DNA of 53,790 nucleotides from a virus: positions 1 through 53,790 of IMG/VR virus record IMGVR_UViG_3300045988_119356, one strand, 5' to 3'. Of this stretch, positions 1-53,790 are shown one piece after another (positions within the stretch are counted from its first letter, which is position 1; the number at the start of each line of letters is the position of its first letter). The notes under the pieces are model-generated. The model was not told where the DNA came from and searched no databases. It worked only from the letters and a program-made list of their open reading frames with translations. The position numbers were made by a program, and so were the translations under genes.

Positions 1-55
1 TTGAACGTGTTAAACACTCCGAACGACGTTAACAGGCGTTGAACGTGTTAAACAC
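1..55. repeat. Left terminal repeat: the last 17 nt of a 38-nt unit plus one full unit. It is identical to the final 55 nt of the window.
   Basis: Direct comparison of positions 1-55 with 53736-53790. The unit is TCCGAACGACGTTAACAGGCGTTGAACGTGTTAAACAC and contains two GAACGNSGTTAAMCA sub-repeats. Confidence 0.9.
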
Positions 56-199
56 CTCCCGGCGCGCTGTGCTGGACTCTTCTTTACTTTACTTTATAGC
101 AACGGCGACCGCGTGTTATGCGCGGGGCTTTTTATAACCGTTTAAAACAGCCGCCGACGTCCGGCGAATCTCTTAAGCGGTTAAGGGACCAGCGGGGTA

Positions 200-529
200 T
201 TAAACCCCGCTAACTTCTTCAATAGTTGCGCACGGTGTCAACATATACCATTTTTTAGGATCAATTTCCACGCCGTTCGCGTATTGTTTACCGGCTTTTT
301 GTGTTATTCTCAAGCCTTGAATTGCGTTTAAGCGTTCGCGCGTTGTTAACGTCGGCCAATCCGCAAGCGTGAAAAATATTTGCCCTTTGTCGTTATGTTC
401 AGCAATTAAATTTTCGTGCAAATACAAGCGCGCGCCGCGTTCGTCACTCTGGACTCTAGTGTTTGATTGTTTGAAGTTTTGAAAGCGGTTGAAAGCGTCC
501 GCGGCTTTTTCTGATATGTTTCTTGACAT
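200..529 (-). CDS. Hypothetical early protein
   Basis: ORF of 109 aa. Its start is preceded by GAGGATTCGAAA, a shared initiation motif. The stop is overlapped by the hairpin AGCGGGG-n7-CCCCGCT. Confidence 0.6.
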   Translation of the reverse strand: MSRNISEKAADAFNRFQNFKQSNTRVQSDERGARLYLHENLIAEHNDKGQIFFTLADWPTLTTRERLNAIQGLRITQKAGKQYANGVEIDPKKWYMLTPCATIEEVSGV

Positions 530-550
530 TTTCGAATCCTCTGTAAATTG

Positions 551-922
551 TTAATAATTTTCTAAAATCAATTGTTCGGCTTGATATAATGCGCGCGCTT
601 GAACGTCAAGCCAAGATTCGCGGCTGTTAGGTTGTTTTTCGCCGTCTCTGGTCCGTTCTAATTCCGAATCCGTACAAAGTCTTTCAGCAATATCACAATC
701 ATAAATTAAAGAACAGCCGCCGGCGCTGTATTGATTCCAGTCGTTCGCGCCGTTCAAAAGCGCACGGCTTAACAGTTTTTTATTGCATATAATACCAAAA
801 TCCATTTCATACAAAGATTCAACAAGCTCGAGTGCATATTCTTTTACGCCGTTTTTCCATGCGCTTTTTGCTGATAAACTTTCGATTTTGTTGTATAAAT
901 TAGAAATATCTTGTCTATTCAT
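551..922 (-). CDS. Hypothetical early protein. The start is probably the second ATG, after GGAGGATTCGAAA.
   Basis: ORF of 123-128 aa. The same 15-nt initiation motif precedes the 529 gene. Confidence 0.55.
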   Translation of the reverse strand: MNRQDISNLYNKIESLSAKSAWKNGVKEYALELVESLYEMDFGIICNKKLLSRALLNGANDWNQYSAGGCSLIYDCDIAERLCTDSELERTRDGEKQPNSRESWLDVQARALYQAEQLILENY

Positions 923-1150
923 TTTCGAATCCTCCAATTTTTGAGGGCATGCCCTTTGCTTCCCTCTTATGTCTTATTTATAACATATTTTTAAAATGTT
1001 GTCAATAAAAAAGTTGTAAACAATTAATATTTTATTTTGTTGTTGTTTGTTAACAAGTGTTTAGAACGTTGTGAGCGTTTATAACTAGTTAGTAACAGTT
1101 ATAAGCTGACTTAATCAAACAATAATATTCTCTATATCTCTATAGAAACT

Positions 1151-1205
1151 TTTTACTTTACTTCTTTACTTTACAAAAAAGTAAAAGTAAACAGTAAAAG
1201 TAAAA
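1151..1205. repeat. Imperfect palindrome of about 25 bp built from TTTAC pentamers (TTTTACTTTACTTCTTTACTTTAC-A6-GTAAAAGTAAACAGTAAAAGTAAAA).
   Basis: The inverted arms can be read directly. A TTTACTTTACTTT fragment also occurs at 96-108. Confidence 0.7.
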
Positions 1206-1284
1206 TGTTCAAATAGGAATCTGAAAACAAAAAACCCCGTCCAACTCTGTCCACGTTATTAACAGCGCTCCACAATCTCCAACA

Positions 1285-1312
1285 TTAACAACACTTAACA
1301 ACAATTAACAAC
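1285..1312 (+). promoter_or_regulatory. Three TTAACAAC direct repeats at an exact 10-bp period (iteron or operator-like array).
   Basis: Copies start at 1285, 1295 and 1305. The array lies in a 680-bp divergent noncoding region. Confidence 0.5.
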
Positions 1313-1475
1313 TCTTTGCGCGTTCGTTCGTATTGTTGTCAACGTTGCCGGCGTTGTTGGAGTTAAGGGGGGCCCTCCCCCCTATAAGCAGTTGAAGGCA
1401 CTTCAACCCGCCAAATTTGCAAACTGCTCAAAAACTTTTACTTGTTAACAAGTGCTGCCACCCCGCATTTAATAC

Positions 1476-1504
1476 TTGACAACAACTTACAGAGCTGATA
1501 TAAC
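1476..1504 (+). promoter_or_regulatory. Sigma70-like promoter: TTGACA, a 17-nt spacer, then TATAAC. It would drive the rightward block.
   Basis: Hexamers and spacing were read directly. It is about 120 nt upstream of the first rightward gene. Confidence 0.45.
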
Positions 1505-1623
1505 TGAGGGTGTTAATAACAATTAGAAGGGTTCGATTGACAATGACCGATAAATTAGATGCTGATAGACTTTATTATGTTAAAAAGAAAAAGAAAAGCT
1601 AAAAAAATTAAAAGAGGTGTTAA

Positions 1624-2070
1624 ATGTCGATTAAAATTTCCGAAAAAACTAAAAATAACCAGTGGGTGTATTTAGTCAAGTCCCCAGCTGGTGAGATTGT
1701 CTATATTGGTGTGGCCCGTTTGAAGGATGCCATCACTTTCAACGCTTTTAACTTCCGACCGGAGTTTGACCCCGACGCACCCTATGAGTTAGAGTTGCTT
1801 GAAAGCTACAGCAATCGATATGAGGCCAACAAAGCTAAAGAGATGTATTTGATGGTGTATGGAACGCCGGTATTTAACCGCGAGTGCAAACGAGTTGTCC
1901 GTTGCATAACGACCGGTGAGGTTTTCAATACGGCTGTCGAGGCTTGCCGGAAATATGGGATTGAGCAAAGCAATATGACGCACCACATGGCCGGTCATTT
2001 GGGTTTCAAAAGCCTGAAGGGGTTAGAGTTCAAGTATGAGGTGCTCTCAGAGAGCAAGGTGCGAGAATGA
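1624..2070 (+). CDS. Small GIY-YIG-like homing-endonuclease-type protein with a C-terminal DNA-binding domain that recurs in paralogs in this genome.
   Basis: The N-terminus has VYLV..(11)..VYIG then R, matching GIY-YIG spacing. The C-terminus has VRCITTGEVF...A.R.YG......H..G......G..F.Y. An RBS AAGAGGTG precedes it. Confidence 0.55.
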   Translation: MSIKISEKTKNNQWVYLVKSPAGEIVYIGVARLKDAITFNAFNFRPEFDPDAPYELELLESYSNRYEANKAKEMYLMVYGTPVFNRECKRVVRCITTGEVFNTAVEACRKYGIEQSNMTHHMAGHLGFKSLKGLEFKYEVLSESKVRE

Positions 2071-2294
2071 GATTTGAAGAAGCGTTAAAAGGTATGATAG
2101 GAGGCAAAAACGCAACATTTGCTCGCTGTACAGGATTTTTCTTCGTGCGTTGTATAACAAAAAAAGACGGAAGAAGTGAATTAAGATTATATTATCAAAC
2201 ACCTGAAGGATTTATAAGCCGTCAACATAAACTAGGTGTCGGTTGGGTTTTAAATTGTGATTGGAGGTATGTGGACAATGTGGCAGAAGATTAA
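2067..2294 (+). CDS. Hypothetical small protein
   Basis: ATGA stop/start overlap with the upstream gene. The GGTGCGAGAATGA context is also found at 2543-2555. Confidence 0.4.
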   Translation: MRFEEALKGMIGGKNATFARCTGFFFVRCITKKDGRSELRLYYQTPEGFISRQHKLGVGWVLNCDWRYVDNVAED

Positions 2295-2409
2295 ATGCTG
2301 GCTAAGTTATCCGTTTAAGCTTCGTTGGTGTAAACGTTGTGCAGATATAGTAAGGATAGATAGCAAACTATGCAAGGCTTGTAAACGTTGCGGAAAGGTA
2401 AAGAGATGA
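2278..2409 (+). CDS. Putative zinc-ribbon mini-protein of 43 aa (CKRC...CKACKRCG).
   Basis: Two CxxC pairs. It is translationally coupled to its neighbours. It is not in the ORF track because it is under 60 aa. Confidence 0.3.
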   Translation: MWQKIKCWLSYPFKLRWCKRCADIVRIDSKLCKACKRCGKVKR

Positions 2410-2555
2410 GTAAATATTTATTTTTTGCTTCTGGCTCTATTTCATCTTCAGCTTGGATATTGCTGAAATCTGATAGATATACTTATTTTGTTGTTCTTAT
2501 GGTAATAAGTTTAATATTATGGCTTGTCGGTGAATATAAAGAGGTGCGAGAATGA
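2406..2555 (+). CDS. Putative small membrane protein of 49 aa
   Basis: ATGA overlaps at both ends. It has a hydrophobic core. It ends ...KEVRE, like the end of the 1624 gene. Confidence 0.3.
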   Translation: MSKYLFFASGSISSSAWILLKSDRYTYFVVLMVISLILWLVGEYKEVRE

Positions 2556-3310
2556 CCGATAACACTACGTACGCTTACACCTCCATAAACTTATGCGAGG
2601 AAACCGCAAATGATATATTCCTGTATGTCGTTCGTAACCGCTCCGGTGGTATTGAGTTTATGGGGTGCGGAACGATGCCTGAGATTGTCAGTATGCGCGC
2701 CATTAAAAACAATAAATTTTTCAACCCGTCCGCTGTGTACGAGTATTGTATTTTATACAACCAACACTTCAAACGGCGTATAGATGCCCTTAACGCTCTT
2801 GGAACCGCTATACGCGCCATACATGGTAGAACACCGCGTATGAACTTATATTCGCGTGACTACAACAACGACAAACGCATCGTATGTCTGCAAACGGGCG
2901 AGATATTTACCAGTGCCGCAGAGATTTGCCGCAAGTATGAAATTAATCCCGGGCAGTTGAGCGATCATCTCAGAGGCGCTCACGGACGTAAGACCGTTAA
3001 GGGTATGACGTTTCTTTATGAATATAAAGTCCGTAAACAGCAAGACCTTTATAACCTGCTAAAATACTGGACGCCGCAAATGTATAACATAGCACCGGTT
3101 GATTGGGACCCTCATAACACCGGTTTGACTGAGGATATGATAGCTTATTGTTACGGAGAGTATTGCAAACAAGAAATTTGTGTGCATTGGTTAGATAGCA
3201 AACGCAATCGCGACGGGCTTGAAGTTATCACTCCTAACACACAAGTGACACCACCACCCGTCCAACTCCCAGAGGTAGAGAGAGTATCGCTTGACAATTT
3301 AAACAGTTAA
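2552..3310 (+). CDS. Paralog with the homing-endonuclease-type C-terminal DNA-binding domain
   Basis: RIVCLQTGEIFTSAAEICRKYEIN...HLRGAHGRKTVKGMTFLYEY matches the C-terminus of the 1624 and 51098 proteins. Confidence 0.55.
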   Translation: MTDNTTYAYTSINLCEETANDIFLYVVRNRSGGIEFMGCGTMPEIVSMRAIKNNKFFNPSAVYEYCILYNQHFKRRIDALNALGTAIRAIHGRTPRMNLYSRDYNNDKRIVCLQTGEIFTSAAEICRKYEINPGQLSDHLRGAHGRKTVKGMTFLYEYKVRKQQDLYNLLKYWTPQMYNIAPVDWDPHNTGLTEDMIAYCYGEYCKQEICVHWLDSKRNRDGLEVITPNTQVTPPPVQLPEVERVSLDNLNS

Positions 3311-3339
3311 TGCTTATTATGAGAGCGGAGATATAATTT

Positions 3340-3951
3340 ATGAACGCATATCCGACAAGAGCTTACGACCTACTTGATGATAACGAGCGGAAAGCGGTTG
3401 AAGAGTATGTTCAATATGTTGTAGCAGAACAAAAACGTAAAAATCAACGTATCGACTTAGCTCTCAATTTACCTATACCGTCAGAATATATAAAACGTTC
3501 TCGTGGTGCTTTATTGCGACCGGTGCCTCGTGCGGCTTTAGCTGAGCGCATTACGGAGGAAAGTAGCTCTTCGGACATATCACCATCTCGTGTTATAAAA
3601 GAGCTGGCTAAAATTGCTTTTAGCGACGTAACGGACTTTTTATACACAGGGCCGTTTGGTAGTGTCAACATAAAACAACTTAAAGACATACCACCCGACA
3701 AATCCGGAGCCATTAAGTCCGTAGAAACTAAAATCGGACAGGCAAGTACCAGCTCTAAGATAACAATGCACGACAAACTTCCAGCGCTCAAAGCCCTTTC
3801 AGAGATGATGGGGCTTACAGCGCCTGAGAATGGACCCGTGCTTGGTGAGTATGTAAAACAAGAGATACGCAAGGCCGCCAAAGAGCAGATTGAAGCTCCA
3901 GAGGCCGAGTATGTTGAACTTTTAGAGCATGTTGAGAGGGTTGAGAGTTAA
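3340..3951 (+). CDS. Terminase small subunit (putative)
   Basis: 203 aa, immediately upstream of and abutting the large terminase, in the expected position. Confidence 0.55.
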   Translation: MNAYPTRAYDLLDDNERKAVEEYVQYVVAEQKRKNQRIDLALNLPIPSEYIKRSRGALLRPVPRAALAERITEESSSSDISPSRVIKELAKIAFSDVTDFLYTGPFGSVNIKQLKDIPPDKSGAIKSVETKIGQASTSSKITMHDKLPALKALSEMMGLTAPENGPVLGEYVKQEIRKAAKEQIEAPEAEYVELLEHVERVES

Positions 3952-5714
3952 TGGGACAGATGACATTAACAGCTTGGAACGAACGCCAAACTGACAACAC
4001 CATACACCCTTGGCGACCCCATCCACTTGGTGCTGATGAATGGCCGCCAAATTATCCCGCTGTCTATCGTTGGCGGTCTAAAGTCCTCAAACAACTTATA
4101 TCTGACCCTAAAACCCTTAAAGCCGCTAAAGTCTATTATTCAACCCATCCGGCTGAGTTTATTATGGACTGGATGGACACTTATGACCCGCGTAAATCCC
4201 CTACCAACGCTAATCCAGCGCTCAGAGGTGAGAAATGGATGCCGTTTGTTTTTTTTAAGCGGCAAAAAGATGTAATTGACTTTTTTGAGTCGTGTTCGCA
4301 TGACCAAACGAGCGGGTTGGTTGAAAAATGCCGTGACTTCGGTTTAACTTGGCTCGCGTGCGGATATTCTGTCTGGCGCTGGCTGTTTATCAAAAATGAC
4401 GCTATCGGTTGGGGTAGCCGTAAAGAAACGCTTGTCGATAAGCCTGGCGACCCTGATAGTATTTTTGAGAAAATCCGTTTAATGCTTAAACGTCTACCGC
4501 GTATATGGTTACCGGCAGGGTTTAGTTGGGGGCGTAATTCAACCTATATGAAACTCTTAAATCCTGAGAACGGCGCAATCATTGCAGGCGAGGCCGGTGA
4601 CAATATTGGTCGTGGTGGTCGTAAGAGTATAATGCTACTTGACGAAGCTGCGCACTTGGAGCGCCCTGAGAAAGTTGAGGCTGCTTTAGGTGATAACACC
4701 AATGTCCGAATTGATATTTCATCAGTTAATGGCGTCGGTAACGTTTTCCACAGACGCAGAGAGAACGGCGTCATTTGGTCGCCTGACGTAACCAGTTATC
4801 CGTTCGGGTTTGTTCGGGTTTTTGTAGCCGACTGGCGCGACCATCCGCTTAAAACTCAAGAATGGTACGATGCCCGTAAAGCTCGTTACGAACGCGAAGG
4901 TATGGCGCATATTTTCGCACAAGAGGTCGACCGTAACTATGCGGCAGCCGTCAGCAACACTGTGATACCTTATCAGTGGGTTGAAGCGTCAATCGATGCT
5001 CACATTAAGTTGCCGTGGTTTGCCGAGGCTCTTGAGACTCATAAAGACGATTGGTACGCAGGGCTCGATGTGGCTGACGAGGGTAACGACCGTAACGCTC
5101 TCACACTTCGACAGTGGGTTATCTGGCGCGATGTGCAAGAATGGGGTGAACGTGACCCTGGTATCAGCGCTCGCAAGGCTGTTTTAGCTTGCAGAGAGCA
5201 TAAAGGTCATATCTGTTGCCAGTATGACTGCATAGGTGTTGGTTCTGGCGTAAAAACCGAATATAACCGCCTTACAACAGACGAAGGAGTTATAAGTGCA
5301 CATGAGATACCATTTATTCCGTGGAACGCGGGGGCTAGTGTTTTAAATCCTTTTGATAGAATTATCCCTGACGACAATGAAAGCTTGCAAAATAAAGATT
5401 TTTTTGATAACTTAAAAGCACAGGCTTGGTGGTCCATACGGACGAGGTTTTATAAAACGTTTAAAGCGGTAAGCGAAGGTGTAAAATATAATCCCGACGA
5501 ACTTATATCAATAGATAGCCGCATAACGCTTTTAGAGCAGTTGAAGAAGGAACTTATACAGCCGACGGTCGGTCATAGTTCAAGACTTAAATTGCTTATT
5601 GAAAAAAAGCCGGACGGTATGCGTTCACCTAACTTGGCGGATAGCGGGGTTATGGCTTTCTTCCCGGTAACTGACGGCTCGACAACAATTTTAACTGGTT
5701 CTTATGGTTTTTGA
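3951..5714 (+). CDS. Terminase large subunit
   Basis: 587 aa. Walker-A-like VEKCRDFGLTW, Walker B LLDEAAH, and a C-terminal acidic nuclease region. Confidence 0.85.
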   Translation: MGQMTLTAWNERQTDNTIHPWRPHPLGADEWPPNYPAVYRWRSKVLKQLISDPKTLKAAKVYYSTHPAEFIMDWMDTYDPRKSPTNANPALRGEKWMPFVFFKRQKDVIDFFESCSHDQTSGLVEKCRDFGLTWLACGYSVWRWLFIKNDAIGWGSRKETLVDKPGDPDSIFEKIRLMLKRLPRIWLPAGFSWGRNSTYMKLLNPENGAIIAGEAGDNIGRGGRKSIMLLDEAAHLERPEKVEAALGDNTNVRIDISSVNGVGNVFHRRRENGVIWSPDVTSYPFGFVRVFVADWRDHPLKTQEWYDARKARYEREGMAHIFAQEVDRNYAAAVSNTVIPYQWVEASIDAHIKLPWFAEALETHKDDWYAGLDVADEGNDRNALTLRQWVIWRDVQEWGERDPGISARKAVLACREHKGHICCQYDCIGVGSGVKTEYNRLTTDEGVISAHEIPFIPWNAGASVLNPFDRIIPDDNESLQNKDFFDNLKAQAWWSIRTRFYKTFKAVSEGVKYNPDELISIDSRITLLEQLKKELIQPTVGHSSRLKLLIEKKPDGMRSPNLADSGVMAFFPVTDGSTTILTGSYGF

Positions 5715-30602: not shown

Positions 30603-31015
30603 TTAACATTTTGAAAAAGCATTTTGAATTTTTGTTCAACGTAATCTATCACGTCCATAAATATAAATCTATCTAAAGATATAACAAATTCGTTAAATAT
30701 ATCCACAGCTTTTTCTTCATCAAATCTAGCAACACCACCAATTGATATTAACACATCTGTCAATTTTTCTACTTGTTTTTGATAGTTTTCCGCGTTGATA
30801 ACATCGTCGATATTTTTTCCGATTTTTTCGATTTGCAAATCAAGAGTGTTATTTGGCAAATTTTTAATATTCCACTCCAAAGCATTATTTAAAACTTTTA
30901 AACATTTGTCTTTGTAGCGATTATAAGAATTAAACATAGGTATTTTGTCGTTCATATTTCCTAACCTATATGATAAGTTTTTGAGCTTCTTGAATATACC
31001 ACTCATAATTAACAT
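30599..31015 (-). CDS. Hypothetical protein
   Basis: 138 aa. Confidence 0.4.
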   Translation of the reverse strand: MLIMSGIFKKLKNLSYRLGNMNDKIPMFNSYNRYKDKCLKVLNNALEWNIKNLPNNTLDLQIEKIGKNIDDVINAENYQKQVEKLTDVLISIGGVARFDEEKAVDIFNEFVISLDRFIFMDVIDYVEQKFKMLFQNVN

Positions 31016-32993
31016 TGTCCCATCTAAAATCTTTAATGTTATTAACTACGCTGACTTTGTAACCGGCCGCTAAACCTGTAATACGTTCTTCATATTTAGA
31101 TTTATTTCCGGTACAAACTCTTTCATCCCATTGACCGCCTGTTTCAGCCATAACACGATTATATTCTTGTTCTGATACACCGTTTTTACGTTTGTAGCAA
31201 CCAACTGGGCCGGCAGGTGGCATAACTTTAGATAAAAATTCTCCGTCCGTGCTGATATAAAATCTTGTGTTCTTTTGAACGTGTTTATCACCCCAGAAAA
31301 GTTTAGAGCCACCGGTAGCTTTAACGGCACAGCAAAAATCAAACGGATTAAAACAACTGCGAATGTATGTTTCAATATCAACACCTTCAACCATGTTTGC
31401 AACGGCCGCGCGCGTACTGACAACGTTTGAGAAGTTTTTATGCCATGCTGGCGGTTGTGAAGATGCTACCGATTCGTGATAATTTAACGGGTCGGGTGTC
31501 CAATAAGCACCTTTGAGTTTACTTTTTCCGTCCGTACCAACAGCGATATAGTTGTTCACATCGCGAATGTACATTTTAGCATATCTAGCTTCTTCAAGGT
31601 CCAAACGTGTTAATTGTTCCCAACGTTTGCAAATTTCTTGAGTTTGCGGGTAATAATCTTTGTGAATATAAAAAGTAATACCATCTGTATTGGCTTGAAT
31701 AACCTGTAAGGTTGGGACATCAGTCAACCATTCAAGCAACATTGACAACATCAACTGACCATTGATGGTAATTGTTATGGTAAACTGAGGGTCGTACATT
31801 ACGCTAAACTTAGAGTTTGATTTACCATAAGCGCCATTAAGGGCGAGTTTGATAGCGTTGGCTTCAGTGCATTTTTTACCTTTTTCTTTTTGCCATTTCT
31901 TACGTTCTTTTTTAAGGTCGCCGTAAACGCTTGCAAATCTTTCTCCAAGATGCTCAGGGTGCAAGCCGTTTACAATAGCTATTGACGGATACAGACTTGA
32001 TACATCGACGTCGACAATCCACCAATCGTCCGTAGCTTGTATGCGTTTCTTTTCAACAGAGCCATGGATACCACCAACGCCATAATGATATTCAACGCCG
32101 TTAACATTGGCGGTAAGATTTTCAAACGCACCTTTGGTTTTAATATTTGTACTTTCCTCACCGGCTGCATTAATTTCTTCACTACGCAAAGTCTGTGAAC
32201 ACATGTAATCATAGATACGCTTAAATTCTAGTTTTTTTAAGCTCACATAAGGAAAAATAATATTTTTAAGTGGTATCTGCGTTCTCGGCGTTTGACGCAT
32301 CTGTCGGCGTCCTGAGGAAGTATCATAGCATACTTCATCACCAAGACGGGACATAATGGTTTGTTCGCCGATTTTCGTATCGTTCCAGTTATAAACATCG
32401 ATACCGAATTGTTCTTCCAAACCTTGTCGGAACTCAATGGCGTGGTGAGCATAATGAGCAAATCGCTTAGTTTCTTGAACGTCGTGATAGTTGTAAGGTA
32501 CAAGCAAGGTATTAACTTCTTCTTGCGTTAATACTGTTCCTGGTTCTATCGGCATATCTTCAATACTGTCAACACGCATGTTTATCTGAAGAAACTTTAA
32601 GCTGGTAGATTTTGCTTTGTTGTCGAAGTGGTGCATTTTGAATAAATCAATTTGCGGTGTAAAACGATCTGAGGTCCAAATGATATGACCAAATCTGTCC
32701 TGACCTTCAATAATTTCTTGAGCTTTCGCGTAAATTTGTTGGTATGTTGCGGAAGGATTATTCCAAAGAAAGTGAATAACTGGATAGTCGAAGTTAATAT
32801 TGTTGTAGCCTATCATTGGCGTTTGAGATGCGGCCAACTCGCGGAAAAATGCTAAAAGTTGTTGGCGGTCATCTCGATACTGAGAGATTTCCCAAACCGC
32901 ACTGGTTGGTTTGTTTAACATCTCCATTGTGAAAGTGAAACAATTTGGGAAAGTTTCAATATCGTAGACAATAGCGTTGGTAAGGTTAAGCAT
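30966..32993 (-). CDS. Family-B DNA polymerase with 3'-5' exonuclease motifs
   Basis: Exo I YDIETF, Exo II NINFDYPV, motif A DVDVSSLYPS, motif B KLALNGAYGK, motif C NTDGITF. Confidence 0.8.
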   Translation of the reverse strand: MLNLTNAIVYDIETFPNCFTFTMEMLNKPTSAVWEISQYRDDRQQLLAFFRELAASQTPMIGYNNINFDYPVIHFLWNNPSATYQQIYAKAQEIIEGQDRFGHIIWTSDRFTPQIDLFKMHHFDNKAKSTSLKFLQINMRVDSIEDMPIEPGTVLTQEEVNTLLVPYNYHDVQETKRFAHYAHHAIEFRQGLEEQFGIDVYNWNDTKIGEQTIMSRLGDEVCYDTSSGRRQMRQTPRTQIPLKNIIFPYVSLKKLEFKRIYDYMCSQTLRSEEINAAGEESTNIKTKGAFENLTANVNGVEYHYGVGGIHGSVEKKRIQATDDWWIVDVDVSSLYPSIAIVNGLHPEHLGERFASVYGDLKKERKKWQKEKGKKCTEANAIKLALNGAYGKSNSKFSVMYDPQFTITITINGQLMLSMLLEWLTDVPTLQVIQANTDGITFYIHKDYYPQTQEICKRWEQLTRLDLEEARYAKMYIRDVNNYIAVGTDGKSKLKGAYWTPDPLNYHESVASSQPPAWHKNFSNVVSTRAAVANMVEGVDIETYIRSCFNPFDFCCAVKATGGSKLFWGDKHVQKNTRFYISTDGEFLSKVMPPAGPVGCYKRKNGVSEQEYNRVMAETGGQWDERVCTGNKSKYEERITGLAAGYKVSVVNNIKDFRWDNVNYEWYIQEAQKLII

Positions 32994-41001: not shown

Positions 41002-41571
41002 TTAAATCCATATAATTTCCGGTCGACCTGTAAAATCTCGTTCCCATATAAACCAAGCGTAACAAACAGCGCTACTCTCATTTTTCGGAAAAAGCCCGTT
41101 TTTGCTGGACGGGATACGTTCGCTAAAAACACAAACGTAACGTGGTGGATGTTTTTCGAAAAATTTACGACGTGTTGCCGATTCTAAAAATCTTATATTG
41201 AGAAAATGACAAGCTATCGGTGCAATCTGTATGGACTTCTCAACGAACTGTAACGCTGCGGAATAAGGCGGATTTGTGATAACAGCATCAAACCCGAGAT
41301 TGTCGTAAGCGGTTGGCTGCAAGAAGTCAACGCCACCAACACCATAACCTCTGTCGATAAGGTCGGTAGAGATGACGGTGTGGCCGTAAATTTGCAACGG
41401 TTCGGAGAGGTGGCCGCGCCCTGCGGCGCACTCCCAGATAAATTTACCGCCGTTCTCCCAACCGAGAACTTTAAGAAGCGGTGGAATTGCGGACGGGTGT
41501 GTGGCGTAAAAATCATGTTCTTCACGCTCTTCACCCTTTTTACGATGTAAACCGTGCATGTTACCTGTCAT
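41002..41571 (-). CDS. DNA N6-adenine methyltransferase (NPPY motif)
   Basis: VITNPPYSAAL (motif IV) and ECAAGRGHL (AdoMet-binding site). Confidence 0.65.
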   Translation of the reverse strand: MTGNMHGLHRKKGEEREEHDFYATHPSAIPPLLKVLGWENGGKFIWECAAGRGHLSEPLQIYGHTVISTDLIDRGYGVGGVDFLQPTAYDNLGFDAVITNPPYSAALQFVEKSIQIAPIACHFLNIRFLESATRRKFFEKHPPRYVCVFSERIPSSKNGLFPKNESSAVCYAWFIWERDFTGRPEIIWI

Positions 41572-42634: not shown

Positions 42635-44159
42635 TGAATTATTTTCAGGATTAGGAGCACAGATTGCTGCTTTCAAACGTCTTAATATACCTTGTGAAGT
42701 AGTAGGTATTTCAGAAATTGATAAATATGCTATACAATCTTACGAGGCTATAAACGGTCCTACGCGTAATTACGGCGATATAACACAAATCCCTTATTTG
42801 GATTATGCGGATTTATGGACATACTCTTCGCCCTGTCAGGATTTTTCAACGGCCGGAAAACAAAAAGGTATTTATAACGCCGACGGCAGTTTAACACGTT
42901 CGGGATTGTTAAAACACGTTGAAAGATTGCTTGAAACGTCTGTGATGTTAGGCAATCAACCTAAATATTTACTTATGGAAAACGTTAAAGGTTTAGTAAG
43001 TAAAAAATTCAAACCTGATTTTCTTAAATGGTTAGATAAATTAGAACAGTTGGGATATAATAACTATTGGCAAGTTTTGAACGCTAAGGACTATGGTATC
43101 CCTCAAAATAGAGAACGTGTTTTTGTTGTTAGCATCCGTAAAGATGTAGATACCAAAGGTTATAAATTTCCCTCACCTGTACCGCTTGAGAAACGCTTAA
43201 AAGATATGCTCGAACCTTGGGTGGACGTAAAGTATTATTTGAGTGATGATAAGGTTGAGAAATTTGCTAACGCTTTAAATAAAAAAATAGAAAATCAAGA
43301 TATTAGTTATTGTATTGATGCTAACTATTGGAAAGGAACAACACCACAACAATTTTTAAATAAAAATCGCAGACAATTAGTTAAAGAAGTTAGTAACACC
43401 ATTCGTTGTGGTGGTGGTGGTAGCTTGGACGGTAAGCATACATGGGATGTTGTTGTTGAACCTTTTATAGCTGATGATACACAAGGTTTTGACGGTGTTA
43501 GATATTACGATAATTATTCACTGACATTAAGAAGTGAGCGTTCAGGATTAAAAGTGGTTGAACCCTTACAAATAAAAGAAGCAACCCAAAAAGGATATGC
43601 TGAGGCTTATGAGTATGATAGTGTTTCGCTCGATCAGCCTAATAGCAAGACAAGAAGAGGTAGAGTTGGAAAGCAAATATCTAATACTTTGACTTGTTCT
43701 TGTAATATGGGGGTAGTTGAGCCTAAAGTTATTCAAGTTGGAAATATTGTCAACACCGGCAACTGGGATAACCCTCAGAGAGGGCGAATCTATTCGCCCT
43801 CTGGAATCAGCCCCGCTCTCAATACGGTAGGTGGTGGAGGATTAGAACCTAAGATTTTTGAAGAAGGTGTCGGTCTTAATCCTTTATCGAGAAAATTAGA
43901 ATTTAACGGATTTAAAGAAAACTCTCCAAGTTTAAGAGCAACCGATTATAAATGCCCTCATTGCTACTCGGATGGTTACCGTATTCGCAAACTTACGGCA
44001 AGGGAATGCTGGCGTTTGATGGGGTTTACCGACATTGAATTTGATTGTGCAAAATTGTCTGGTGTATCAAACTCACAGCTTTATCGCCAGGCGGGAAATT
44101 CAATCGTGGTAGATGTTTTAGTCGGTATCTTTAAGGAGTTGTTCGATGACAGATTTTAA
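42621..44159 (+). CDS. DNA (cytosine-5) methyltransferase
   Basis: Motif I LFSGLGA, motif IV SSPCQDFS, motif VI ENVKGL, and C-terminal motifs. Confidence 0.85.
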   Translation: MITINELFSGLGAQIAAFKRLNIPCEVVGISEIDKYAIQSYEAINGPTRNYGDITQIPYLDYADLWTYSSPCQDFSTAGKQKGIYNADGSLTRSGLLKHVERLLETSVMLGNQPKYLLMENVKGLVSKKFKPDFLKWLDKLEQLGYNNYWQVLNAKDYGIPQNRERVFVVSIRKDVDTKGYKFPSPVPLEKRLKDMLEPWVDVKYYLSDDKVEKFANALNKKIENQDISYCIDANYWKGTTPQQFLNKNRRQLVKEVSNTIRCGGGGSLDGKHTWDVVVEPFIADDTQGFDGVRYYDNYSLTLRSERSGLKVVEPLQIKEATQKGYAEAYEYDSVSLDQPNSKTRRGRVGKQISNTLTCSCNMGVVEPKVIQVGNIVNTGNWDNPQRGRIYSPSGISPALNTVGGGGLEPKIFEEGVGLNPLSRKLEFNGFKENSPSLRATDYKCPHCYSDGYRIRKLTARECWRLMGFTDIEFDCAKLSGVSNSQLYRQAGNSIVVDVLVGIFKELFDDRF

Positions 44160-46428
44160 CCTTACAACAGCTTATATCACGTCCTTAACCGGCAACCCTA
44201 ACACCGAGTGCGATTGGCGTATTATTAACGACCGCAACGCCGGTGAAATGGGCATTAACCTTCGCGGGTCGCTCACAACCGTTGCAGCTCAATTACAAGC
44301 TTACAACCAACAAGGTTATGGTATTTTTATGACTGTCAACGCTATGAACCCGACAGGCCCTCGCACACTTGAAAACGTTGCTTATACCCGCGCACACGTT
44401 GTTGACCTTGATGATATTATAAGCGCTCAGGACAGTTACAATAGAGCTGTGCAGTCCAATATGCCCCCGCATTTTGCGGTACAATCATCACAAGGAAAAT
44501 TTCACCTTTATTGGCTGGTAGAACCTTATAAAGATAATGATTTTTATAGCTTACAACAACGCAAACTCGTACAACTTTATAATTCAGACCCAAATGTTAT
44601 TGATGCCACTCGAATCCTGCGTGTTCCTGGTTTTTATCATAACAAGCGCGAACCGCAACTTGTAACCTGCTGGGGTATTCACAACGGTCCGAGATATACA
44701 GCGCAACAAATTGCCAATAACCTGGCCACAATCAATATTGTGTCTGTAGGTAGTAAACGTTCGGAGCTCGGTGATCCGAAATTAGCCGCTCCAAACATAA
44801 ATTTGCTCGTGTATGCGTTAAACACCATCGACCCGAATACACTTACTCGCGATGAGTGGATGGCAACGTCAGCAGCTTTTAAACAAGCCGGATGGTCTTT
44901 GACGGATGAAAACACCTTGCATAATTTATGGTTGCAATGGTGCGAAAAATATAAAGACGACAACAAGTCTGAAAATCTTAAAATGTGGGCGTCGTTCAAA
45001 GATACTCAGGTTGGTTGGTCGCGTTTTTGTCGTTTGGTGCCGGAAGTGTTGGCAATACAATATTTCGGTCAACCGTCGACAACCACTTCACCTGCACCAG
45101 CGACAACGCCAGAACCATGCGAGATGAATAACCTGCCGGAAATTCTGGACGCTACTGCAAAACAAATATGGTTTAAAAACTGTTTCTTTGTTGAAAGCGA
45201 AGGCAAAATTTTCTCACCGACTGGACGCTTTATGAATCAAGTACAATTCAACGGTCGTTACGGTGGTAAAGAGTTTACACTTAAAAATAACGGCGGAAAA
45301 CTAACCGACGAAGCGTGGAAAGCTGCTTTGCGTTCGGTTGATTGGTGCATACCAAAAGTGGACCATTGTCGATTCTTACCACAAGAAGCAAGTTTTAGCG
45401 TGATATTAGATGATATGGGGCGTAAAGGTTTAAACACTTATATTCCGGCAAAAATTAAAACTGTTGAAGGTGATATCAGCCGTTGGAAGGATTATTTAAC
45501 AAGAATTTTCAATACACCTGAGGATATTAAAATCTTTGAGGATTATGTTGCACATTGCATTAAATTTCCCGGTTGGAAAATTCCGTGGTCTGTGCTGTTA
45601 CAGTCCGCAAAAGGTATCGGTAAACAAATGATAAGCGATATTATCAAACACGCTGTCGGTGAGCCTTATACGTATCAACCGGACGCTGAAGAACTTGTTA
45701 GTGGTGTCAGTCAGTTTAATGGCTGGATGCGCAATAAATTGATGATTTTGGTTGATGAAGTGCGAGTTGGTGACCGTAATGACCTTATGAACGGGTTAAA
45801 AACAATTATTACCGACCGTCGAATCGCAATTGAATCGAAAGGTGTCGATCAGGAAATGGAGGATAACGTTGCTAACTGGATATTCTTCAGTAACTTTAAA
45901 GACGCTTTCCCGATTGATGAAAACGAACGCCGTTATTGTATTTTTTACAGTAAATTGCAGTCCGCTCTTCAAATTGAAGAAGCTGGTTTGAATAAAGACT
46001 TTTTTGATGGTATGTATCATTGGCTTGAGTGCGAACAAGGTTTTGAAAAACTCGCTTGGTATTATTTGCATTATCCGATTGAGCGCGGTTCATTACCACA
46101 CAGAGCTCCACACACATCATCTTATGAAGAAGTTATACGTATCGGTCGTAGCCCGTTACGTGTTATACTGGACGATAAAATTAACGCTGGTGAGCGTGGT
46201 TTTCGTGGCGGGTATGTCAGCTATGTTATGTTCCAGAAAGCTGTTGCTGAGAGTTCTATGCGCAATAAACCGCTTGAGCATACTCTTAAATCAATCATCG
46301 AAGGAAAAGGTTATCATGAGCTTGGATATACAAAAGCGCCTGTTCCTGGTGAAGATTTGAAACAACCAAGCTTAATATTCGGTTTGAAGGGTTTAAGTGT
46401 TGATGGATATGAAGGAGCGCAAAATTGA
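44146..46428 (+). CDS. Primase-helicase (D5/SF3-like)
   Basis: 760 aa. Walker A KGIGKQ, Walker B ILVDEV, and an N-terminal primase-like region. Confidence 0.55.
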   Translation: MTDFNLTTAYITSLTGNPNTECDWRIINDRNAGEMGINLRGSLTTVAAQLQAYNQQGYGIFMTVNAMNPTGPRTLENVAYTRAHVVDLDDIISAQDSYNRAVQSNMPPHFAVQSSQGKFHLYWLVEPYKDNDFYSLQQRKLVQLYNSDPNVIDATRILRVPGFYHNKREPQLVTCWGIHNGPRYTAQQIANNLATINIVSVGSKRSELGDPKLAAPNINLLVYALNTIDPNTLTRDEWMATSAAFKQAGWSLTDENTLHNLWLQWCEKYKDDNKSENLKMWASFKDTQVGWSRFCRLVPEVLAIQYFGQPSTTTSPAPATTPEPCEMNNLPEILDATAKQIWFKNCFFVESEGKIFSPTGRFMNQVQFNGRYGGKEFTLKNNGGKLTDEAWKAALRSVDWCIPKVDHCRFLPQEASFSVILDDMGRKGLNTYIPAKIKTVEGDISRWKDYLTRIFNTPEDIKIFEDYVAHCIKFPGWKIPWSVLLQSAKGIGKQMISDIIKHAVGEPYTYQPDAEELVSGVSQFNGWMRNKLMILVDEVRVGDRNDLMNGLKTIITDRRIAIESKGVDQEMEDNVANWIFFSNFKDAFPIDENERRYCIFYSKLQSALQIEEAGLNKDFFDGMYHWLECEQGFEKLAWYYLHYPIERGSLPHRAPHTSSYEEVIRIGRSPLRVILDDKINAGERGFRGGYVSYVMFQKAVAESSMRNKPLEHTLKSIIEGKGYHELGYTKAPVPGEDLKQPSLIFGLKGLSVDGYEGAQN

Positions 46429-47180: not shown

Positions 47181-47442
47181 ACATCGAGAGGGGTACAAAC
47201 GTTCGAGGATTCGAAGAACATTTATGTAATTATATTAACACGTGTTAACGATGTTGTCAAGGTTAAAATTGTGCGGTATCGCCATTCATTCGGAAAATGA
47301 ACTGTTACCTGAAACTTGAACCTTTGTAGGCTGGTCGATTATAGCACCCGCACAATGCTTCGAAAGAAGTAGTAACAGGATAGAATTAAGCTGGAATATT
47401 TTATCTCCCTACGCCCTCCAGCTCCGCTCTATCTACGTTATT

Positions 47443-47607
47443 TCAAGCCGTAAGGGAAGGCTCAAAATTTTTGCAATCATCAAAACTAGCATAGGACTGG
47501 CGGTTTGGGTTGTTTTTAAGCCATTCTTTCTCTTCGTCTGTTAACTTCCGCCAACATTTTGCAACGCACAGGCACGTGCAAACCGTAAAATCAAGGCTTC
47601 TACTCAT
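47443..47607 (-). CDS. Cys-containing mini-protein of 54 aa (tentative)
   Basis: ORF MSRSLDFTVCTCLCVAKCWRK...; under 60 aa. Confidence 0.2.
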   Translation of the reverse strand: MSRSLDFTVCTCLCVAKCWRKLTDEEKEWLKNNPNRQSYASFDDCKNFEPSLTA

Positions 47608-47924: not shown

Positions 47925-48205
47925 TTACTCCTTAAATAAAACTTTAATAACTGTTTGCATTTGCTTAGGTGTTTTGCCGGTGCATATAAGCTCGTGATAT
48001 TCGTCCCAGTTATTAAAATGTATATCTCCGGTTCTAGAAAATATCATCTGATTTATTTCTACATACTCGTCGACATATTCGCCTTCGTTGTGAATGTATA
48101 TATCATCTTTATCGAAAGATTTTTAACCCATTCAACTAACTCTTCCCAGGTCATCTCGGGCTCAAAAGCTAAATTGTCCTCGTAGTCAGGCGCATTGTTA
48201 CTCAT
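47925..48205 (-). pseudogene. Small gene split by a frameshift at a homopolymer (AAAAA), or a sequencing error
   Basis: ATG 48205 reads MSNNAPDYEDNLAFEPEMTWEELVEWVKNLS... and stops after 48 codons. Another frame continues as ...DDIYIHNEGEYVDEYVEINQMIFSRTGDIHFNNWDEYHELICTGK... to about 47925. Confidence 0.3.
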
Positions 48206-48801
48206 TAATCCATCTCCGTTATTAAATCTAAACCATCATCGTCCAGACATTTACCATTAATATCGTACTTTCGAAGTTTTTTATCACCTTCAAATACGAC
48301 ATAATATTCATCCTCATCAGCAGCGAATACGATACCTATTTTATTATCGGCAGTTACATATTTTTTAGAAACTTTTAACTTGACCGGAACAGGCTGTAAA
48401 CAATAATAACCATCTTTATCTGTTAGATCAACGGCACTGTTGATAAATAACGGTATATTGGTAGACGTATAAGTAACAATCAATCCATCGATAAGTTTAA
48501 ATCTTTTACCGGTTGAAAAACTAATAACCGTTTTACCTTTATTCAAGCTATCGATGATAGCAACTTCATCTAATAAAGATACCTTTTCAAACTTACCTTG
48601 CACTGTTTGTGTAATGGTATCCGTTGTTTGAGCGATATACATATCGTAAAAATTTTTCAATTTTGTTGCGGTTTTGGTACGTAATTTTTTATCATTTTTA
48701 TAATTGTATAACGCATTTACAGAAATACCTATTTTGTCAGCTAATTCGTGAATATTTAAACAGTTTTCATCAGCATATTTTATAAAATCATCATATTGCA
48801 T
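48205..48801 (-). CDS. HTH-domain protein (putative regulator)
   Basis: N-terminal NIHELADKIGISVNALYNY looks like an HTH. The start is placed at the second Met with an RBS GAGGAG. The 28-nt hairpin element lies about 30 nt upstream. Confidence 0.45.
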   Translation of the reverse strand: MQYDDFIKYADENCLNIHELADKIGISVNALYNYKNDKKLRTKTATKLKNFYDMYIAQTTDTITQTVQGKFEKVSLLDEVAIIDSLNKGKTVISFSTGKRFKLIDGLIVTYTSTNIPLFINSAVDLTDKDGYYCLQPVPVKLKVSKKYVTADNKIGIVFAADEDEYYVVFEGDKKLRKYDINGKCLDDDGLDLITEMD

Positions 48802-48828: not shown

Positions 48829-48856
48829 ATCGGCAGACTTTGACCGGTCTGCCAGC
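48829..48856. repeat. 28-nt hairpin element, copy 2
   Basis: Identical to 33852-33879. Confidence 0.8.
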
Positions 48857-48865
48857 AATTATTAA

Positions 48866-50366: not shown

Positions 50367-50378
50367 GGTTATTACTCC

Positions 50379-51097: not shown

Positions 51098-51460
51098 TTA
51101 AACTTTATTAACATATCTGAACGTCCTTCCAGCTAAAGTTTTCACGTTGCGAATACCTTTTAAATGCTTGCTCATGTTACCTTTACCAACATTAGCCCAT
51201 CGAGCAGCTTGTTCAGCGTTGAGAAATATATCACCTGTTTCAGTACAAACAACAGCTGATGTCGGTAACAGTTTTAAACCCATAAATCCGGCGAAATCAA
51301 TAGCGTGTTTCATAGCGTCCGAAAAATTGTCATGGACGGATAAAATTTTTATATCGCACAAATTATCAGGGGTAATATGTTTTGCTATTTTATCACTGCT
51401 GTTAGCGCCGATTTGTGTAATAGTACCGCATGTAACGGTATATGTGTAATAGTACCGCAT
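51098..51460 (-). CDS. Third paralog of the homing-endonuclease-type DNA-binding domain protein
   Basis: AVVCTETGDIFLNAEQAARWANVGKGNMSKHLKGIRNVKTLAGRTFRYV. The start is placed at the TAATG overlap at 51460 rather than the track's 51562. Confidence 0.5.
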   Translation of the reverse strand: MRYYYTYTVTCGTITQIGANSSDKIAKHITPDNLCDIKILSVHDNFSDAMKHAIDFAGFMGLKLLPTSAVVCTETGDIFLNAEQAARWANVGKGNMSKHLKGIRNVKTLAGRTFRYVNKV

Positions 51461-52041
51461 TAATTTTCTCCCGCTAATTTTACAGTTAAACCAAATATTT
51501 CCGCTTCTCTTATATCTTTGCATGTATGTATAATAGTACCGCGCGCATCTAAAATTTGCCACTCGGCTTTATTAACCGTTTCAGGATATAACTCGTAAGC
51601 CATTATCAGCGCTTGACGGCTTTTATCGGCGTTCCGGAAATATAACGGATCACCGAATAATACCGGAATGTTGATAATCATATCAGGGCCGATAAAATCT
51701 TTCACCAGTTGATAAATTTTAGCGCTGGTATAAAGTCGGTCAAAAATTGCAAAACCGTCCTGTAATAGTACTTTGTCATCAAACCAAAGTCTGTTTGCGT
51801 TCTCGACACTGCGTAATAGTACAGCGCGCCAATCTGGGTATTCTTCAGCACAATTTGTCGGCATCTGTGTAATAGTATCCCAAAACTTATTCATAAAGGG
51901 CGTGCCGCCGCTTTCAATAAGCATGATTTTCCCATCACTAGCCACAAACTCACCGGTGTTCGGGTCTTGATAAACATATTGAAGAGCTCCGCGCGTTGTG
52001 AGCTTGCTGGCGGCTTTATTCAAGAAAGGTGAGTAAAACAT
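51460..52041 (-). CDS. Hypothetical protein
   Basis: 193 aa. It contains several GTAATAGTAC motif copies in different reading frames. Confidence 0.5.
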   Translation of the reverse strand: MFYSPFLNKAASKLTTRGALQYVYQDPNTGEFVASDGKIMLIESGGTPFMNKFWDTITQMPTNCAEEYPDWRAVLLRSVENANRLWFDDKVLLQDGFAIFDRLYTSAKIYQLVKDFIGPDMIINIPVLFGDPLYFRNADKSRQALIMAYELYPETVNKAEWQILDARGTIIHTCKDIREAEIFGLTVKLAGEN

Positions 52042-52196
52042 CTTTTGATCCTCCGATATATTTCTTCTATTTTAACAACAAACCAAGCAATAGGATATAT
52101 TACACCGGCAATTATTAAAATTATCATCGGAAATGCTATCTTTAACCCTATTATAAAAAAAGGTAATAAAGCAACAAATATAAATACTTCTATCAT
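52017..52196 (-). CDS. Small hydrophobic membrane protein of 59 aa
   Basis: MIEVFIFVALLPFFIIGLKIAFPMIILIIAGVIYPIAWFVV..., with an RBS GGAG. It is under 60 aa, so it is not in the track. Confidence 0.35.
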
Positions 52197-52231
52197 TTTA
52201 ATCTCCGCGTGTTATGAGCTTGCTGGCAGTT

Positions 52232-52582
52232 TTATTGAGTAATGGACTGTAAAACATTCCGCACCCCGTCTAAATACTCTTCAATGTCTGCTATTTTTTC
52301 AGTTACAGAATCATAAGTACCACCTTTAACCTCTTCGGCCTTGATTAAAATATCATCAATATCATTCAAACAATCCGAAATATCATTCAAACAATCCGAA
52401 ATATCATTCAAACAATCCGAAATATTATTCAAATTATCATCGATGTCGCTGGTGTCCGGCGTTGCTTTCAACAGTCTTTCGGCCAACTCTCTCAACAATT
52501 CGTCTTTGTCTTGGGACTCAACATAGCTGTTATGATTACCGTTTGCGATGTCCTCAATGTCCGATTTATCTAATGCTAACAT
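52232..52582 (-). CDS. Acidic protein with (ISDCLND)x3.5 heptad repeats
   Basis: 116 aa. A 21-nt DNA tandem repeat lies at about 52358-52440. Confidence 0.5.
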   Translation of the reverse strand: MLALDKSDIEDIANGNHNSYVESQDKDELLRELAERLLKATPDTSDIDDNLNNISDCLNDISDCLNDISDCLNDIDDILIKAEEVKGGTYDSVTEKIADIEEYLDGVRNVLQSITQ

Positions 52583-52921
52583 ATTTCGATTCTCCCTTTT
52601 TTAATGGTATTTTACAAACTTGTTAAACAATGTCAAGATTTATTTGTGTGATGGTACAGGATTAAAACCAAATAAAAGCTTTTTTAATTATTTTAGCGTT
52701 TTTACCCCAATATAATTTCCTCATACCGGATATAGACGCGTTCGGGCCTACACTCGGGCAATTTTCAAGCTCCGGGCACTTATCATCTTTTTTTTAAAAT
52801 AAAAGTCTGTCCCGGTTCAATTTTATTTTTCAAATCTTTAAGCGTGTATAACATTTTTCGAATCCTCTCTATTTATTGTTTATATTATATTTATAACACA
52901 TTTTAAAATTGTTGACAACAA

Positions 52922-53188
52922 TTAATTCCACGGGCCACGAATGATTTTAACTTGTCCGGCCGATGAACTCCCCGGCAAATAATGAATATATTTATCACCT
53001 TGTTTGCGCCATCTGCCGGCCTCTTGTCCTTCAATTAAAACTCGTCCATCTGCGCACAATTCGCCGTTAATAGCCATCGACAAATCAAAAGCGCTTTGTG
53101 CGGTTTCAAGTATCCACTCGCCGGCTGCCTCCTCTTCCCATTGTCTGAGGGTGTCGGCGGTTAATTCTGAACGTTTAAAAACTGGCAT
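52922..53188 (-). CDS. Hypothetical protein
   Basis: 88 aa. Confidence 0.45.
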   Translation of the reverse strand: MPVFKRSELTADTLRQWEEEAAGEWILETAQSAFDLSMAINGELCADGRVLIEGQEAGRWRKQGDKYIHYLPGSSSAGQVKIIRGPWN

Positions 53189-53191
53189 TGT

Positions 53192-53659
53192 TTAGCGCTC
53201 CGCATCCAAATTATAATCAAAAAGTTTGACAAGTTCAGCAATCAAACTGACAACTTCCGGGCTGTTAACGTCGGCTTTTTTAAGTCCGGCGATATAATCC
53301 GGATCGGCTTCGCTGTGTTGTCCGACGTGTCTATAACAGCCGATTCTTTGCGTCCGTTTGTCCTTAACTTCAGGAAAAACGGCTAAAATATCAACTTCCT
53401 CGGTATATTCGTTAGGCTCTTCATAAAAAACAACTTTTGTTTTGAATCTGTCAAGTTTTGAGCACTCGTTTATAATATTTGAGCGGTCTATCAAATCACC
53501 TAAAAAATAAAGATTACCTTGATATTTTTTATAAATTCTTACTTTTTGATTTCCGTTTTTATATTGTTCTAAATCAACAATCATTTTTTGATTAAAACGG
53601 TCTAAAATTTTAATCGTTTCAACGTTAACAATTTTATCTGATGTATATATTTTTTTCAT
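53192..53659 (-). CDS. Hypothetical protein (first gene of the leftward block at the right terminus)
   Basis: 155 aa with an RBS AAGGAG. Upstream, TTGGAT, 17 nt, then TATACT form a promoter-like arrangement. Confidence 0.5.
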   Translation of the reverse strand: MKKIYTSDKIVNVETIKILDRFNQKMIVDLEQYKNGNQKVRIYKKYQGNLYFLGDLIDRSNIINECSKLDRFKTKVVFYEEPNEYTEEVDILAVFPEVKDKRTQRIGCYRHVGQHSEADPDYIAGLKKADVNSPEVVSLIAELVKLFDYNLDAER

Positions 53660-53676
53660 GTCACTGGCTCCTTATA

Positions 53677-53708
53677 TGTGATAGTATAGCATGTAATAGT
53701 ACAGCATC
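53677..53708 (+). repeat. Two tandem copies of the GTRATAGTAYAGCAT motif (GTAATAGTAC family)
   Basis: TGTGATAGTATAGCATG followed by TGTAATAGTACAGCATC. The same family occurs at 51414, 51443, 51527, 51810 and 51866. Confidence 0.7.
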
Positions 53709-53714
53709 CAACAC

Positions 53715-53790
53715 TCCGAACGACGTTAACAGGCGTTGAACGTGTTAAACACTCCGAACGACGTTAACAGGCGTTGAACGTGTTAAACAC
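53715..53790. repeat. Right terminal repeat: two tandem 38-nt units, preceded by a partial unit.
   Basis: Read directly from the sequence. The last 55 nt equal the first 55 nt of the window. Confidence 0.9.

Follow-up and report, generated by a model that had tools for sequence, protein, structure and literature searches.

The window analysed here is the whole of the IMG/VR virus record IMGVR_UViG_3300045988_119356 (53,790 nt, one strand), which begins and ends with the same 55 nucleotides, both copies of which sit within a tract with a perfect period of 38 nt. On the minus strand, a gene for a protein of the Kyano_Gp96 family is followed by a cluster of terminator-like hairpins, the 38-nt array, two copies of a dyad motif, a ribosome-binding site (RBS) and the start codon of a gene for a 155-amino-acid protein with a conserved, acidic C-terminal domain of 86 amino acids (Table 1). 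Read leftward, the array comes after a gene pair and its terminators and before the operon that follows.

Table 1. Positions of the array, its surroundings and other features of the window discussed in the text.
Feature	Position	Strand	Remarks
Tandem array as assembled	53710-53790 (81 nt)	-	AACAC + 2 x 38 nt, TCCGAACGACGTTAACAGGCGTTGAACGTGTTAAACAC on the + strand; Tandem Repeats Finder (TRF) score 162
Duplicate of 53736-53790	1-55		last 55 nt of the periodic tract; exit node of the k = 55 repeat loop
Terminator-like hairpin cluster	59-75, 109-125, 151-167, 191-211		separates gene 200-529 from the array
Upstream leftward gene, 109 aa, Kyano_Gp96 family	200-529	-	stop precedes terminators and array
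Proximal dyad motif GCTRTACTATYACAT x 2	53676-53705	-	TGTA-N4-TACA / TATA-N4-CACA; abuts the RBS on its upstream side
First gene downstream of the array, 155 aa	53192-53671	-	ATG 53659; RBS GGAGCC 53666-53671
Second variable-number tandem repeat (VNTR), 21 nt x 3.6, 98% identity	52358-52433	-	in frame within gene 52232-52582
Cro/C1-type helix-turn-helix (HTH) protein	48205-48801	-	last sizeable gene of the leftward operon
TerS (Terminase_2)	3340-3951	+	3.3 kb from the array
TerL	3951-5714	+	basis of the packaging prediction; 3.3 kb from the array
Canonical promoter TTGACA-N17-TATAAA	977-1005	-	ahead of gene 922<-551; same sequence as the post-array promoter of L176/L179

The first-pass annotation of this DNA had described the two ends largely correctly. 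Positions 1-55 equal 53736-53790 letter for letter; the right end consists of two exact 38-nt units and a partial one (100% matches in TRF), and the left end of 17 + 38 nt, i.e. 1.45 units. The 14-nt sub-repeats GAACGACGTTAACA and GAACGTGTTAAACA lie where they had been placed, three at the left end and four at the right. The 15-nt consensus proposed for them (GAACGNSGTTAAMCA) matches nothing, even with one mismatch allowed; the sub-repeats are each 14 nt long and differ beyond that consensus, and GAACGWSKTWAACA fits both. This corrected consensus is enriched solely through the array, its other matches with one or two mismatches lying in coding DNA and looking like chance. Exact copies of the 38-nt unit begin at 53715 and 53753. 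In gene sense (minus strand) the unit reads GTGTTTAACACGTTCAACGCCTGTTAACGTCGTTCGGA and contains GTT-N(0-1)-AAC boxes at a spacing of ~9.5-10 bp. Both the exact 38-nt duplication and the 55-nt end identity are far beyond chance. Because the tract has a period of 38, prefix and suffix are also identical at k = 17, and the circle can therefore be closed with either two or three units.

The topology of the assembly graph accounts for the point at which the window was broken. A de Bruijn graph with k = 55 was simulated for a circular genome with differing copy numbers of the array. With two units there was no repeated 55-mer and no branch, and the cut point would be arbitrary. With three or more units, or with a mixture of two and three, the long unitig ran exactly from base 1 of the window to base 53764; the window equals this unitig plus the obligatory 26-nt arc that returns to the same 55-mer. 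As 55 is a standard k of SPAdes, we infer k = 55 as the assembler setting behind the window. A de Bruijn assembler would then have closed the phage genome as a circle and cut it at a real intergenic 38-bp tandem repeat. At least three units, or mixed lengths, in the sample would have produced a loop in the k = 55 graph, and the contig would report the shortest path through this loop, 2.13 units. The copy number displayed is thus a lower bound, that in the sample being probably at least three or mixed.

Independent assemblies of the same phage bear on this directly. Siblings of the window were located via identical proteins in three other gut metagenome assemblies of the ENA, and the copy-number data come from the ENA and Logan contigs reached in this way; across all fetched DNA the siblings are 99.5-100% identical to the window. 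One of them, the MEGAHIT contig ERZ27272341 k119_162959 (53,795 bp, 99.6-100% identical), spans the junction of the window, running from gene 200-529 through the terminators and one 38-nt unit to the gene that starts at 53659. The two ends of this contig are themselves identical over 119 nt, exactly the k given in its name, and this overlap maps to positions 41224-41342 of the window, within a gene. Without their overlaps the two assemblies comprise 53790 - 55 = 53735 and 53795 - 119 = 53676 nt; one unit from each of two VNTRs covers the whole length difference (53735 - 38 - 21 = 53676). A second sibling (ERZ19693506) likewise spans the junction with one unit. In both, the periodic tract measures 43 nt (1.13 units), which is shorter than 55, so that a 55-nt terminal repeat built from the array is impossible in them.

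The third sibling (ERZ917862, k127) terminates inside the array with three units. Its last 127-mer is made up of 1 flank nucleotide, 119 periodic nucleotides and 7 flank nucleotides and represents the final node unique to the three-copy path, before the node at which a longer variant merges. This points to a longer variant coexisting in the same sample, i.e. to within-sample heterogeneity in copy number. The genomes accordingly carry 1.13, 1.13, at least 2.13 and at least 3.13 units between flanks that are 100% identical, and the array is a VNTR whose copy number differs among otherwise identical phages. The comparison of copy number that the first-pass annotation had proposed, made here across siblings, speaks against its terminal-repeat option, as the same terminal repeat is not common to all genomes of the strain. 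Exact searches for the 38-nt unit in IMG/VR, JGI metagenomes and GTDB genomes found none, and no relatives of the 155-amino-acid protein were found in IMG/VR. As separate observations, the ERZ917862 contig is 68 nt short of the length that simple closure would predict, and the protein of the gene that carries the second VNTR has 116 amino acids in the window and in ERZ917862 and 109 in ERZ27272341.

Taken together, the siblings that cross the junction, the agreement of the unique lengths and the predicted break point mean that the ends are not a true terminal repeat. Almost certainly, the 55-nt ends are the k-mer overlap left by an assembler on closing a circular genome, rather than virion termini. 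This was the second of two possibilities in the first-pass annotation, and the sibling assemblies (one of them with an overlap of its own k elsewhere) and the break of the k = 55 graph at base 1 bear it out.

The terminase genes fit this picture. TerL shares 44.7% identity over 94% of its length with that of Salmonella phage 9NA, which published accounts describe as a pac-site headful packager (PMC4153490; PMC8954984). Phage 9NA gave the best TerL match with a characterised packaging mode, and it is with this headful phage, not with direct-terminal-repeat packagers, that the window TerL groups. Judged by this homology, the virion DNA is probably circularly permuted, terminally redundant and packaged by a headful mechanism from a pac site. 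The array does not lie within or adjoining terS, as a pac site or TerS-binding region would, and is 3.3 kb upstream of it; two genes on the opposite strand, a divergent control region and three genes on the same strand lie in between.

Relatives of the phage, located through the 155-amino-acid protein and through TerL, possess orthologous arrays. An alignment of the flanks with L176 and L179 showed homology throughout the terminator region, as far as the boundary of the array. The arrays themselves consist of 19-nt units in L176 and L177 (x 9.4 and x 5.4; last unit GCGTTTAACACGT) and of 29-nt units in L179 (x 4.5, including GCGTTTAACACGC), L093 (at least x 3.4, including GCGTTCAACAG) and L095 (at least x 3.4, including CGTTAAACAC and AACACTCCG). 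A core G[C/T]GTT[T/C]AAC(AC) is common to all these arrays and that of the window (e.g., GCGTTTAACACG in L176/L179, GTGTTTAACACG in the window, and GTGTTTAACG, in reverse complement, together with AACACTCCG in L095), and the rest of the unit has diverged. Three or four copies of GCTGTACTATTACAC(AA) come after the array in L093, L176, L177 and L179. The complete order in L176, L177 and L179 is array, short spacer, 3-4 tandem copies of the 17-nt GCTGTACTATTACACAA (dyad TGTA-N4-TACA), a TTGACA-N17-TATAAA promoter and an RBS; L093 has three motif copies after its array and a similar promoter with a weaker -10 element, and the fetched contig sequence of L095 stops short of the promoter side. These four relatives share the order of array and promoter; the window lacks that promoter. 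Since the contigs of L093, L095 and L177 also start in the array, such arrays routinely break short-read assemblies.

The alternative of a true short direct terminal repeat, i.e. linear virion DNA with fixed ends in the array whose boxes serve terminase or end recognition as in T7, has to be weighed against these data. It would explain why the ends are identical and why three complete-length and several shorter contigs of the group (L002, L093, L095, L177, L013, L017) start or stop in an array, either the orthologous one or another that precedes the packaging module; moreover, a genome with a direct terminal repeat also assembles as a circle. However, perfect tandem arrays break short-read graphs whatever their function, and L176 and L179 contain the array internally. 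The siblings with the 43-nt tract have flanks identical to those of the window; one of them was assembled through the tract at k = 119, and its end overlap equals its own k at an unrelated locus. The window breaks exactly where the k = 55 graph predicts. With the closest TerL of known packaging mode being a headful enzyme and the array lying 3.3 kb and five genes away from terS, a short repeat made for terminase, as first suggested, is highly improbable.

What remains is the function of an array that is real although the ends are not. The retention of its position and of the core box in relatives, with the remainder of the unit replaced, argues for constrained binding sites. As far as sequence comparison can tell, the array most likely consists of sites at which a protein binds within the control region of an early operon. 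The iterated protein-binding sites of the first-pass annotation are in this sense plausible, given that the core box is conserved in the arrays of diverged relatives, but their likely role is in early-operon control and not at genome ends. The array would be the distal one of two arrays in a conserved control region that belongs to the leftward, probably early, operon. A sequence-specific protein would occupy its G[C/T]GTT[T/C]AAC(AC) boxes and modulate the transcription of this operon, and the copy number would drift through replication slippage. The binder may be a host factor or the phage's own HTH protein (Table 1), a candidate by virtue of being the only recognisable DNA-binding protein in the leftward operon, with an HTH domain conserved in L176. 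A transcriptional role is a real possibility, at somewhat less than even odds. More tentative, and rather doubtful, is an extended version in which a hypervariable yet constrained iteron array, its box bound by a phage or host factor, belongs to a two-array module common to an uncultured siphovirus clade from gut and rumen, with Alphaproteobacteria as probable hosts; the number of copies would vary between and even within populations and serve as a tuning knob (contingency locus) for early genes or replication.

Two other views accept artefactual ends and a real array and differ in what the boxes do. Iterons of a replication origin (for a primase-helicase/T7-like replisome) or a TerS-bound pac region would suit boxes that are conserved and phased at ~10 bp. 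Furthermore, the phage carries its own primase-helicase, PolA-like polymerase and gp2.5-like single-stranded DNA-binding protein (SSB). Ahead of the packaging operon there is another array with an AACAC core (1280-1316; period 10 nt), which has counterparts in L013, L018, L025 and L095 and adjoins inverted AT-rich arrays and a conserved palindrome of the G6..C6 type. Origins in T7-like systems are linked to promoters. On the other hand, 7 kb separate the array from the primase-helicase gene and 3.3 kb separate it from terS, the scanned open reading frames (ORFs) yielded neither a plasmid-type Rep nor a Par gene, no significant single-strand structure was detected, and the position directly upstream of a promoter in relatives fits transcription at least as well. 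We regard a role in replication or packaging as unlikely. The other view, a slippage-prone minisatellite drifting neutrally in a tolerant intergenic spacer without sequence-specific function, agrees with the tolerance of one to at least four copies in otherwise identical genomes, with the variation of unit length and most of the unit sequence among relatives, and with the many other tandem repeats in these phages. It does not explain why the array occupies the same position in every examined relative that has the region, nor why the core of 9-10 nt is retained as the rest of the unit is replaced, as expected of constrained sites; an array devoid of function is, in our opinion, similarly improbable.

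Several candidates for the function of the array were tried and rejected. The spacing and sequence of a CtrA box (TTAA-N7-TTAA) and of a DnaA box, compared by eye, do not fit. The secondary structure of the array, as DNA or RNA, was no better than that of shuffled sequences (z = -1.46 and -0.25), and the idea of a hairpin or single-stranded origin was dropped. The first downstream gene is no convincing regulator: the conserved domain of its product is acidic and does not resemble a DNA-binding protein. Ideas of a plasmid prophage (partition site, copy control) were abandoned because integrase, Par and Rep genes were lacking among the scanned ORFs.

The favoured account, then, combines a k-mer overlap at a real VNTR, headful-packaged permuted DNA and an array that probably belongs to a control region, and we assign it a probability of about 0.8. 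Some points weigh against it. The HTH protein is no more than a candidate binder of the array, and a neutral repeat would likewise tolerate one to at least four copies. Where relatives have a canonical sigma-70 promoter after their arrays, the window has none: a promoter scan was empty there and the proximal motif abuts the RBS. The TerL is only 45% identical to that of 9NA, and for the closer Rhizobium phages (59% identity) no packaging data were found. The value of k = 55 for the window is a probable one, taken from the match between the 55-nt overlap and a standard SPAdes k, and circular assemblies alone cannot exclude a longer direct terminal repeat elsewhere in the genome. Finally, a palindrome at 47235, tried as a second site of the array type, was discarded: it lies on a segment of ~110 nt that is absent from L176, and lends the array no independent support.

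This palindrome is one of several GTTAAC-centred sites that had been listed as related to the array. TTAACACGTGTTAA is present, but at 47235-47248, one base off the reported 47234; CTTGTTAACAAG lies at 1441-1452 as described, whereas the site at 1047 reads TTTGTTAACAAG, starting with TTTG and not CTTG, and the palindrome there is TTGTTAACAA (1047-1056). GTTAAC, the HpaI site, is ~2x over-represented genome-wide (40 sites versus 19.9 +/- 4.3 expected), and palindromes elsewhere are therefore weak evidence of relatedness. The absence of site avoidance would fit self-methylation or a host that lacks this restriction system. Of the two palindromes that flank the divergent region, TTGTTAACAA and CTTGTTAACAAG, one overlaps a leftward promoter-like site and the other precedes a rightward TTGACA-N17-TATAAC site by ~25 nt; both may be operators. 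In the spacer of a minus-strand TTGACA-17-TAATAT site (47220-47265) lies TTAACACGTGTTAA, a perfect palindrome of 14 bp. Beside it, a non-coding stretch of ~120 nt (47330-47450) is conserved with L176; it has no match in Rfam and could represent a small RNA.

Repeats also occur in the divergent control region (1129-1382) that precedes the packaging operon. It contains AT-rich inverted arrays (ACTTTTTACTTT x 2.2 facing AAAAAGTAAAAGT x 2.3), the array of 10-nt period at 1280-1316 (CAACACTTAA x 3.8) and a palindrome, GGGGGGCCCTCCCCCC, at 1367-1382. AACAC-core arrays with a period of 9-10 nt are found upstream of terS in L010, L013, L018, L025 and L095, and the G6..C6 palindrome recurs in L013, L023 and L025. 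Region 1129-1382 is a candidate for an origin or pac region.

Copies of the motif GCTGTACTATTACAC are not restricted to the arrays described above. Five look-alikes lie inside ORFs of the window (51415-51881, minus strand), tandem arrays of 3-7 copies occur in relatives (L012 1278-1393, L096 29-94, L176 2655-2703, L179 2542-2609), and single copies are found just upstream of RBSs inside the operon in L093 and L094. The motif could be either an operator family or an RNA-level signal. The ortholog of the HTH protein in L176 carries, as a linker, a coding repeat of 27 nt x 6.6 (5420-5598; peptide TITRTQATP), of which the window protein has a single degenerate copy; the DNA of this linker repeat (ACCATTACACGTAC) resembles the proximal motif. 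The leftward early genes are preceded by a near-invariant initiation region, GGAGGATTCGAAAATG, at 527-541 and 920-935 of the window (minus strand) and at many gene starts in L091-L093 and L176-L179. It includes a GANTC site, and the phage encodes several DNA methyltransferases.

As a whole, the window is a complete siphovirus-type phage genome. Structural genes encode a portal, a major head protein, a tape measure and a J-like tail protein, and a T7-like replication set comprises a PolA-like polymerase (30966-32993), a gp2.5-like SSB, a DUF2800 nuclease, a helicase and a primase-helicase (44146-46428). There are also three methyltransferases and three tRNAs, the latter being the sole matches in the Rfam search. 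The phage is probably virulent, because no integrase, Par or plasmid-type Rep gene was recognised among the ~50 ORFs scanned with PHROGs or Pfam. No cultured phage matched in a megablast search with 25 kb of sequence. In genome collections, the closest contigs are whole phages that were binned into metagenome-assembled genomes of rumen Alphaproteobacteria and have a TerL ~80% identical; the closest of these relatives (L095, JAFUXW010000002.1; L096; L097) are phage-sized. The closest cultured relatives by TerL infect Rhizobium and Sinorhizobium. These affinities hint at an alphaproteobacterial gut host.

The known phenomenon nearest to the finding in its original form is the overlap of k-mer length at the ends of circular contigs from SPAdes or MEGAHIT, which viral metagenomics often scores as "DTR" (direct terminal repeat). 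As in the window, the prefix of such contigs exactly equals the suffix, the overlap corresponds to a standard k, an independent assembly is circularly permuted with an overlap of its own k, and the unique lengths agree. The window differs from the ordinary case in that its cut is not arbitrary and lies at the exit node of a tandem-repeat loop, with the copy number under-reported. By the evidence above, the window does not qualify as a direct-terminal-repeat genome, nor the array as a pac site adjacent to terS; the array does qualify as a VNTR and as an array of conserved boxes. With the 9NA group (Nonanavirus) and the SPP1-type Terminase_2 TerS the phage shares siphovirus-type structural genes, a circular assembly and the TerL similarity to 9NA; its genome is 53.7 kb, with no lysogeny gene among the scanned ORFs. 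The relation to 9NA is nevertheless distant, the gene order around the terminase differs, and headful packaging of the window phage is a prediction from homology.

For the array itself, the nearest biological analogues are operator and iteron arrays upstream of promoters, e.g. the omega-protein heptads of pSM19035, the incC/incA iterons of P1 and the metbox arrays of MetJ. Like these, it has short, partly dyad-symmetric boxes placed head to tail just upstream of a promoter region, with a variable repeat number, a conserved core and variable spacers. Unlike them, it is built from composite units of 19-38 bp with several boxes each, its cognate binder is only a candidate, its copy number differs between and probably within populations, and no plasmid replication or partition genes occur among the window ORFs scanned. 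The terminal repeat of T7 is flanked by short repeat arrays, SRL and SRR. The window resembles this arrangement in having tandem short repeats where the contig ends, but there is no evidence for fixed ends, the TerL is not T7-like, and sibling assemblies cross the array.

Current understanding is not overturned by these results, and their main value is cautionary, for termini called from metagenomic contigs. The window illustrates, as a worked example, how viral metagenomics may take a tandem repeat for a direct terminal repeat: labelling such contigs "DTR, complete, fixed ends" would misjudge their packaging, and the copy number they display is a lower bound. For the phages themselves, the array marks a conserved, fast-evolving control region in an uncultured group of the gut and rumen. 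If its boxes are indeed binding sites, they would provide a handle on early-gene regulation in phages that have no cultured host.

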